This document shows, piece by piece, positions 32,385 to 32,597 of a DNA stretch of 64,000 nucleotides. Both the position numbers and the translations under genes were made by a program. The notes below the pieces were generated by a model. It did not search any database. It was not told where the DNA came from and was given only the letters and a program-made list of their open reading frames with translations. This stretch comes from Escherichia coli (lineage in GTDB: Bacteria > Pseudomonadota > Gammaproteobacteria > Enterobacterales > Enterobacteriaceae), in NCBI RefSeq assembly GCF_001677475.2, contig NZ_CP015229.1. The stretch is one strand, 5' to 3'. The stretch's first letter is position 1. Each line of letters starts with the position of its first letter.

Positions 32385-32597
32385 CCCTGTGCACCAAAAG
32401 CAAAAACTTATCGACGCGGTTTTTTACGTACATCAGGTGAAACTGACCGATAAGCCGCTTTCTTTTGGGTATAGTGTCGTGGACAGTCATTCATCTTTCT
32501 GCCCCTCCAAAAGCAAAAACCCGCCGAAGCGGGTTTTTACGTAAATCAGGTGAAACTGACCGATAAGCCGGGTTCTGTCGTGGACAGTCATTCATCT
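32385..32597. repeat. Tandem direct repeats (two units of about 100-110 bp) duplicating the rnpB 3' end and terminator
   Basis: Unit A 32385..32496 and unit B 32507..32597 share caaaagcaaaaac...tttttacgta(c/a)atcaggtgaaactgaccgataagccg...gtcgtggacagtcattcatct. Confidence 0.85.

Follow-up and report, generated by a model that had tools for sequence, protein, structure and literature searches.

A short variant of the rnpB 3'-flanking tandem repeats in an Escherichia coli genome

Results

We have analysed a 64-kb stretch of Escherichia coli DNA, termed the window in the following, in which the RNase P RNA (M1 RNA) gene rnpB is followed by a short array of direct repeats (Table 1). The gene itself is complete. 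The Rfam model RF00010 matches it with 319.7 bits over model positions 1-367, as class A and without truncation, and it shares 99.7% identity with rnpB of K-12 (b3123). The mature 3' end, ...CACCU, lies at position 32548, and in K-12 the 3' end mapped by Term-seq is the homologous base (PMC7815308 supplement). A putative sigma-70-like promoter precedes the gene; its -10 element stops 7 nt ahead of the first RNA base, taken from the Rfam start, and the assignment is a consensus match only. Upstream of rnpB and on the same strand lies garK, and downstream follows the convergent gene yhaC (31141..32328, plus strand). The array adjoins an AT-rich tdcR-yhaB-yhaC block (GC 0.27-0.39 versus 0.52-0.63 in the flanks) that is missing or degraded in many strains.

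The array consists of two units that are arranged head to tail on the rnpB strand. Here, S1 denotes the 17-nt start and S2 the 22-nt end of the gene part of a unit, and S1p and S2p are their copies in the pseudo-unit. S1 comprises J18/2, the P2 3' strand and J2/4, while S2 comprises the end of the P4 3' strand and the P1 3' strand. The final 50 nt of rnpB are part of unit 1, which runs on the rnpB strand, and after the spacer GCTTTTGGAGGGGCAGAA of this unit the repeat restarts at AGATGAATGACTGTCCACGAC. The core motifs of the two units are 113 nt apart (32569 to 32456). A repeat search returned an 82-nt pair (32394-32475 and 32507-32588) with 83% ungapped identity at the same 113-nt spacing, and an exact 22-nt pair (32475-32496 and 32576-32597), of which a third copy with 73% identity is found at 32361-32382. 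The distal edge of the array is formed by the vestige of a third S1, which matches at 15 of 19 positions, is in register (p ~0.009 by shuffling) and is also present in K-12, O157:H7 and strain 536. Both S1 and S2 occur exactly twice in the 64-kb window, each time in the array, even when up to three mismatches are allowed. Tandem Repeats Finder did not report the array in the window, because it holds only two diverged copies.

The initial annotation had proposed two direct-repeat units behind rnpB, each with the last ~50 nt of the gene, and had taken a self-alignment identity below about 80% as the result that would speak against them. Gapped alignment of the two units gives 87 matches, 10 mismatches and one internal 12-nt indel, with a local alignment score of 121 (2000 shuffles: mean 13.9, sd 2.1, maximum 26), and the gene end is present in both units, with S1p matching at 17/17 and S2p at 22/22 positions. 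Identity is 89.7% excluding gaps and falls under the 80% line only when all gap columns are strictly counted (73.7%). The proposed boundaries were right within ~10 nt, but the gene-proximal unit had been drawn without its spacer (32497-32506), and the 12-nt indel and the third vestige (32382..32364) had been missed.

Table 1. Features of rnpB and of the repeat array in its 3' flank
Feature	Position	Strand	Basis
rnpB, RNase P RNA (M1 RNA) gene, 377 nt	32548..32924	-	Rfam RF00010
Putative rnpB sigma-70-like promoter, GTGACA, 17 nt, TATACT	32932..32960	-	consensus scan, 10/12 matches
Repeat unit 1, 101 nt: real rnpB 3' end, 9-nt trailer, T1 and spacer GCTTTTGGAGGGGCAGAA	32597..32497	-	
S1 in unit 1, GATGAATGACTGTCCAC, 17 nt	32596..32580	-	
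P4 3' strand in unit 1, AGAACCCGG	within rnpB 3' end	-	
S2/P1 3' strand in unit 1, GGCTTATCGGTCAGTTTCACCT, 22 nt	32569..32548	-	
T1 intrinsic terminator, AAAAACCCGC-TTCG-GCGGGTTTTT	32538..32515	-	folding
Repeat unit 2 (pseudo-unit), 114 nt: S1p, insertion, S2p, decayed terminator and spacer GCTTTTGGTGCACAGGGTA	32496..32383	-	
S1p in unit 2, 17/17 as in gene	32495..32479	-	
12-nt insertion in unit 2, ACTATACCCAAA	32475..32464	-	gapped alignment
S2p in unit 2, 22/22 as in gene	32456..32435	-	
Second-terminator relic, AAAAAACCGCGTCGATAAGTTTTT	32425..32402	-	folding
28-codon ORF (MNDCPRHYTQKKAAYRSVSPDVRKKPRR), GGAGG ahead, judged non-coding	32494..32408	-	
Vestige of third S1, AGATGCATGAATATCTACG, 19 nt, distal array edge	32382..32364	-	

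A terminator hairpin stands at the end of unit 1 and is absent from the end of unit 2. T1, the terminator of unit 1, folds into a perfect 12-bp stem with five G-C pairs and a UUCG loop, followed by UUUUU, as is typical of intrinsic terminators. Its predicted stability is -19.4 kcal/mol (z -4.36), which none of 200 shuffled sequences reached, and the activity of the "rnpB T1" as a terminator has been measured experimentally (PMC3643576). The A-run and the T-run of T1 are symmetric, and therefore a hairpin with a U-run can form on either strand, so that T1 can also halt convergent yhaC transcription. A simple terminator pattern scan missed T1, probably because the maximal stem absorbs the T-run, and returned a site inside rnpB; the scan was not used. 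Terminator-like hairpins had initially been assigned to both units. Both are indeed homologous to terminators, but the element of unit 2 is merely a relic for which no stable hairpin is predicted. In a 46-nt context it folds with -4.4 kcal/mol (z +0.58; 143 of 200 shuffles were as stable), and folding of 32425..32402 gives no G+C-rich stem such as an intrinsic terminator has. The relic is orthologous to the decayed distal terminator of K-12, DSM 103246 and REL606; in O157:H7 and strain 536 this terminator is intact. Since the distal unit is likewise decayed in K-12, DSM 103246 and REL606, the hairpin-less unit 2 still counts as a member of the array. Judged by these folds, back-up termination is predicted to be lost in the window, with T1 alone remaining.

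Unit 2 cannot replace the real rnpB 3' end, because it carries a 12-nt insertion and an altered P4 strand. The insertion, a hallmark of all pseudo-units, sits between a J2/4-like CCACGAC and the homologue of the P4 3' strand; ACGCTATACCCAAAAGAAAGC and CGACACTATACCCAAAAGAAAGCGG are stretches specific to it, the latter being absent from the real rnpB. P4 is part of the catalytic core of RNase P RNA. Its 3' strand ACAGAACCCGG reads AAAGAAAGCGG in unit 2, where CCC is changed to AGC and AGAAAGCGG replaces AGAACCCGG. The earlier proposal that only the gene-proximal unit is part of the functional gene agrees with the Rfam result: the model stops at 32548, and at E <= 10 RF00010 finds no match in unit 2 (32383..32496). 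The real 3' end by itself reaches 52.8 bits. An Rfam search of unit 2 matched no family; RF00010 on the real gene is the only passing Rfam match, and the rest are sub-threshold matches on the T1 hairpin.

Comparison with other E. coli genomes confirmed that the feature is a short allele of the known K-12-type repeat array in the rnpB 3' flank. K-12 MG1655 (NC_000913.3) has the same gene order, garK-rnpB-array-yhaC, and the same repeat in the spacer between rnpB and yhaC, where Tandem Repeats Finder reports 3.5 copies of 113 bp with 96% matches. The cores are spaced by 113, 113 and 113 nt. Behind the real unit, K-12 has two pseudo-units with perfect terminators (T2 and T3) and a fourth unit, in whose terminator region a REP/BIME element lies between two decayed hairpins. 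The window agrees with K-12 in the content of the units (the last ~50 nt of M1 RNA, a terminator and a spacer), in the 113-nt register and in the 12-nt insertion. Its S1p-insertion-S2p segment differs from the K-12 units by at most one substitution, and both arrays have the same sequence at their distal edge. In contrast to K-12, the window has one pseudo-unit instead of three and lacks a 168-nt segment, and its sole extra terminator is decayed, whereas T2 and T3 of K-12 are intact.

Unit 2 is homologous to the pseudo-units of K-12, DSM 103246, O157:H7 and REL606, and a five-way alignment shows column-by-column correspondence of S1p, the insertion and S2p between the window and K-12, DSM 103246 and O157:H7. 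The allele of the window corresponds to that of DSM 103246 (one pseudo-unit), or to the distal unit of K-12, minus the 168-nt segment, which is made up of a decayed terminator and the REP/BIME element. This segment is present in all of the nearest alleles of the repeat. Other strains differ in further ways. O157:H7 has two units with an intact second terminator, REL606 has three units, one of them with a longer terminator type, and in strain 536 the array is collapsed to a single unit with an intact hairpin at the distal position.

Of 5,426 complete E. coli genomes, 5,398 were hit by a 113-nt pseudo-unit query, at 13,670 places in total, with one to nine places and a median of two per genome. 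In 3,657 genomes at least one place covers at least 80% of the query, and the pseudo-unit is absent from about one third of the E. coli genomes. Among 60 evenly spaced genomes 21, 11, 7, 15 and 6 have one, two, three, four and five units, respectively. The earlier statements that the repeat is present in K-12 and that its copy number may depend on the strain are thus correct: the 3.5 copies of MG1655 are found at the same place and compare with two units here. Reed and Altman (PNAS 1983) reportedly described 113-bp repeats in the rnpB 3' flank of K-12, and they are said to have noted open reading frames in the repeats. No complete E. coli genome is at least 99% identical to the window over the 22 kb around rnpB (22000..44000); the best one reaches 98.4%. 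Should the source assembly be built from short reads, identical internal units may have collapsed, and the two units are then a minimum.

On the rnpB strand, the K-12 Term-seq data list only the 3' end of the mature RNase P RNA and, antisense to yhaC, a 3' end that depends on Rho (PMC7815308 supplement). No 3' ends at T2 or T3 are given in these K-12 tables, from which reads of repeats or with multiple mapping positions were possibly discarded (PMC7815308 supplement).

The array is not confined to E. coli. A search of bacterial genomes, one for each species, for pairs of S2 cores at a distance of 80-110 nt gave 31 loci. They belong to Escherichia, Citrobacter, Klebsiella, Enterobacter, Kosakonia, Lelliottia, Cedecea, Buttiauxella, Yokenella, Atlantibacter, Phytobacter, Superficieibacter and Huaxiibacter, so that the distribution covers at least 13 named genera of the Enterobacteriaceae, in addition to unclassified Enterobacteriaceae isolates. 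In every locus in which rnpB could be located the match starts at the end of rnpB, and the arrays follow directly after the gene. Arrays are found in Salmonella too, where a Salmonella Senftenberg record has seven units. Across genera, array size ranges from two to seven units and the period from 105 to 128 nt. S. houtenae and one enterobacterial metagenome contig have no pseudo-unit, and K. aerogenes has an S1p stub only. Five GC-rich metagenome contigs show weak similarity 340-375 nt past rnpB, where a convergent ORF (MSLSAVILFAHG...) starts; we treated these as chance matches.

The pseudo-units of the different genera start at the same base, GATGAATG, and carry the insertion at the same site, which is identical in 22 species or strains. 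There are two related types of insertion, GCTATACC(C)AAA and TCC-GCTTTCTATGA. All pseudo-units but one, a unit of Lelliottia WAP21, have [A/C]GC in place of CCC. The common boundary and the common insertion site therefore point to one ancient duplication and not to recurrent ones. The duplication proposed initially is real, but unit 2 did not arise recently from the end of this gene; its 12-nt insertion, which the genera have in common, assigns it to an old lineage of pseudo-units. A pseudo-unit with the same boundary and insertion site over at least 13 genera was not found in the searchable literature.

The terminator and spacer show a different pattern. Between genera their mean identity is 66%, whereas the terminator and spacer of pseudo-units resemble T1 of their own species (mean 78%, up to 98%), and a T/C variant in the P1 3' strand tracks the real gene of each species. 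The decayed parts of the arrays are the distal edges, and arrays often end in a half unit, in which a pseudo gene end has no terminator behind it and lineage-specific DNA begins. For a pure passenger, the pseudo-M1 part is conserved unexpectedly well.

Discussion

With a probability of roughly 0.8, we regard the feature in the window as a short allele of an rnpB 3'-flank tandem array that goes back to one old duplication and is kept up by unequal recombination, with the pseudo-M1 segment as a passenger. In the ancestor of the Enterobacteriaceae a single duplication would have copied the last ~50 nt of rnpB together with T1 and a spacer of ~20 nt. The downstream copy would later have gained the insertion of ~12 nt and the change of CCC to [A/C]GC in the P4 strand. 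From then on, homologous unequal crossing-over or replication slippage between units would let the array grow and shrink, and the same exchange would homogenise the terminator and spacer of each species with its own T1. Concerted evolution by unequal crossing-over would produce the terminator and spacer pattern seen between and within genera. Crossovers upstream of the insertion would leave a dead essential gene and would not be recovered, and for this reason unit 1 is expected to stay distinct. The distal edge probably decays because exchanges never replace the distal sequence. The array in the window is near minimal, with the real unit and a strong bidirectional T1, one pseudo-unit with an intact pseudo-M1 part and a decayed terminator, and a 19-nt vestige. 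We have seen no pseudo-unit without the insertion; some such pseudo-units might be expected from simple conversion by the real gene, and their absence counts against this explanation.

For the extra units with intact terminators, such as T2 and T3 of K-12, the most plausible role is solely that of a back-up for termination behind a gene with very strong transcription. If T1 were read through in the window, transcription would enter the convergent yhaC in antisense direction, and its termination would depend on Rho. The pseudo-M1 segment that comes with the terminators is most likely a passenger.

The alternative is that the pseudo-unit, that is S1p, the insertion and S2p, is a functional RNA or cis-element under purifying selection throughout the Enterobacteriaceae, either as a module of read-through RNA or as a small RNA that mimics the P1/P2 3' strands. 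In the first form, a hairpin of S1p and S2p (10 bp) would form upon T1 read-through, before the next terminator, and would spare the folding of M1 RNA from a perfect complement of its 5' end. In the second form, the transcript would be processed into a terminator-ended small RNA of ~95 nt that pairs with the 5' 20 nt of M1 RNA. If true, RNase P RNA could be influenced by an RNA of this kind in its folding, 3' processing or turnover. We consider a selected function unlikely.

Several aspects of conservation are consistent with selection. In 18 species the first pseudo-unit has an S1p that is identical at 17 of 17 positions, and no conservation is seen in the adjacent spacer. The insertion averages 76% identity between genera and is identical in E. 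coli and Salmonella. Within arrays, variable columns are rarer in S1p and insertion (19/470) than in terminator and spacer (63/634), and in Enterobacter ENT03 the S1 of the real gene has changed and that of the pseudo-unit is still ancestral. However, the invariance of S1p is partly a matter of ascertainment. In a metagenome sample that was anchored on the real-gene junction only, and that held five assessable enterobacterial contigs, four of them with pseudo-units, two of the four arrays have an S1p substitution common to their pseudo-units. Moreover, the pseudo-units are dispensable, as they are lacking in about one third of the E. coli genomes and in some Salmonella.

The predicted structure is similarly divided. 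RNAalifold places the 10-bp S1p:S2p helix in 22 of 22 aligned units, every single-sequence fold contains it, and a Kosakonia unit folds with a z-score of -4.8. Yet none of the 10 pairs predicted by RNAalifold shows covariation, because all columns of the helix are invariant, and the segment from S1p to S2p of E. coli alone has an unremarkable stability (z -0.89). The z-scores of the single-sequence folds are mostly driven by the terminator. As for a separate transcript, the spacers contain no conserved promoter and differ between genera, no Rfam family was matched and the Term-seq tables give no T2 or T3 ends; the weight of these absent ends against a transcript is weak. If the pseudo-unit were selected, this would mean an unrecognised layer in RNase P RNA biogenesis, but the evidence does not demand selection. 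The conservation of a distinct pseudo-unit across genera is the only part of the locus that is possibly worth an experiment.

It is very improbable that the two-unit structure is an artefact of assembly in which identical internal units have been collapsed. The internal units of K-12 are near-identical and, at 113 bp, collapsible by short-read assemblers, and there is no complete E. coli genome with at least 99% identity over 22 kb for comparison. However, two-unit alleles occur in 11 of the 60 sampled finished genomes, including O157:H7 and GF43, and GF43 aligns with the window in one piece over 22 kb. The two units of the window differ at 10 positions and by the indel and are therefore not collapsed copies of each other.

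Two further readings were rejected and have hardly any probability left. One is that the units encode small basic peptides, the candidate in the window being the 28-codon ORF. In the E. coli units an ATG stands 8 nt past a GGAGG, and E. coli, Salmonella and E. whittamii have open frames of 28-39 codons, but neither frame nor length is conserved across genera: frame 1 stops after nine codons in 9 of 24 species, the downstream frame shifts because the insertions differ in length by 1-2 nt (KKAAYRS is read in frame 1 in E. coli and in frame 2 in Enterobacter), some units carry a mutation in the first ATG, and only Escherichia and Klebsiella have a Shine-Dalgarno-like sequence.

The other takes the copies of the gene end as att-site scars of an integrative element in the rnpB 3' end, for example of the tdcR-yhaB-yhaC block. 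Integrative elements displace gene-end copies at tRNA and tmRNA genes, and the locus resembles the att sites of such islands in that a stable-RNA gene has its 3' end directly repeated beside lineage-specific AT-rich DNA. The array abuts an AT-rich block that is missing or degraded in many strains, and arrays often end in half units with lineage-specific DNA behind them. Unlike at tRNA and tmRNA islands, there is no integrase, no second copy beyond the island and no copy borne by an element, and the rnpB copies are adjacent. With up to three mismatches, no further copy of S1 or S2 is found in the 64-kb window, and the AT-rich block therefore lacks flanking repeats. The annotated neighbours include no integrase, and the units stand head to tail with only ~50 nt between the gene-end copies. 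Phage and plasmid collections carry the unit only on apparently chromosomal records, which are mis-filed or short unannotated fragments, and not on a true phage or plasmid; six viral contigs share the bare 17-mer and otherwise have no similarity to rnpB. In addition, the arrays are older than the E. coli-specific yhaBC block, because those of Salmonella and E. whittamii adjoin the tdcA upstream region.

The short allele of an old, recombining array can be compared with two known kinds of repeats. Tandem back-up terminators, such as rrnB T1-T2, are found behind highly expressed stable-RNA genes. Here too, an RNA gene with very high transcription has a strong intrinsic terminator behind it, further copies of which lie downstream in many strains. 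In contrast to rrnB, the extra terminators of rnpB come from a duplicated part of the gene, their number varies between zero and eight among strains, and the second one in the window is predicted to be non-functional. With minisatellites (VNTRs) the array shares the head-to-tail units of ~105-128 bp in one to nine copies within one species, the units within a genome being closer to each other than to those of other genera and the edges being more decayed. Unlike in a minisatellite, one end of the rnpB array is anchored in an essential gene, which serves as a permanently conserved template for part of the unit, and crossovers upstream of the insertion would be forbidden. In the literature that we searched there was no paper on these repeats, on rnpB as a typing VNTR or on rnpB together with yhaC.

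The feature in the window is a dispensable repeat of variable copy number behind an essential RNA gene and as such matters little. It does explain spurious small ORFs and possible assembly collapse at the rnpB locus. With one to nine copies and several terminator and REP variants the array is a ready strain marker, and probes or primers for the "rnpB 3' end" may also bind the pseudo-copies.

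Terminator types and array structure

The tandem repeat at the rnpB 3' end differs between E. coli strains by a 168-nt segment: K-12, DSM 103246 and REL606 have it, and the window, O157:H7 and strain 536 lack it. The segment contains one decayed terminator and one REP/BIME element, and is flanked by short AAACC(G/C) repeats, which occupy homologous sites in two terminators. Arrays of E. coli and of Salmonella alike mix two terminator types (arrays of the comparison sequences L001, L006, L022, L039, L045 and L064), a short one, CCCGC-TTCG-GCGGG, and a long one similar to CCCGTCAGTGCAAACTGGCGGG. 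The decayed second terminator of the window looks like a truncated long type. The lineage of the window is without a close relative among finished E. coli genomes: over 22 kb (window 22000..44000) the closest complete genome is 98.4% identical, and none reaches 99%. It may be a Shigella lineage or a divergent Escherichia.

Features in and around the array
Feature	Coordinates	Strand	Remark
AT-rich block	window ~29600..32350		holds tdcR-yhaB-yhaC; adjoins distal edge of array
18-nt tandem repeat (2.3 copies, 79% matches)	window 32237..32277		inside yhaC 3' end
ORF, 159 codons	window 32550..33029	+	antisense across whole rnpB
168-nt segment	L001 (K-12) 2190..2357		missing at window junction 32425/32426; compared with L001 and L042

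Possible alternative pairing at the M1 RNA 3' end

The 17-nt start of the repeat unit, S1 (UGAAUGACUG; window 32596..32580), and the 22-nt end of the gene, S2 (CGGUCAG..UUCA; 32569..32548), are complementary over 10 bp. To judge from this complementarity, an alternative hairpin could form at the 3' end of M1 RNA, in competition with helices P1 and P2. The S1:S2 pairing is invariant across all sequences, and the corresponding segments of unit 2 have the same type of complementarity as the rnpB 3' end. The long antisense ORF is no real gene, only an artefact caused by the G+C-rich sequence of rnpB.

The region beyond the array

The GC content of the tdcR-yhaB-yhaC block is 0.27-0.39, compared with 0.52-0.63 in rnpB and garK. 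Strain 536 has a degraded version of this block, and in REL606 it carries a frameshift. Salmonella and E. whittamii are without it; there the array adjoins the tdcA upstream region, which has a TGTGA-N6-CACA motif. The 18-nt repeat in the yhaC 3' end is also found in K-12. Published Term-seq data for K-12 (PMC7815308) include a Rho-dependent 3' end at coordinate 3269111 on the minus strand; it is on the same strand as rnpB and antisense to yhaC. The homologous position in the window is about 31830, within yhaC. In K-12, therefore, some transcription passes the array or starts beyond it.

Arrays and duplications in other records

A metagenome contig (L124; JAANCK010564574.1) of a GC-rich, unrelated lineage carries a tandem partial pseudo-rnpB about 45-240 nt past the rnpB 3' end. 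The copy covers roughly the last 150 nt of the gene with the P4 3' strand mutated, and Rfam scoring detects the real rnpB only, leaving the copy without a score. It is a 3'-end duplication of independent origin. Two further records, L020 (CACSKA010000008.1, 'Chryseobacterium sp. 18061') and L030 ('Microvirga antarctica', a 289-nt contig), both contain the enterobacterial repeat motif, and their assemblies are probably contaminated or misassigned. In L020 an rnpB with 97% identity is followed by a six-unit array.
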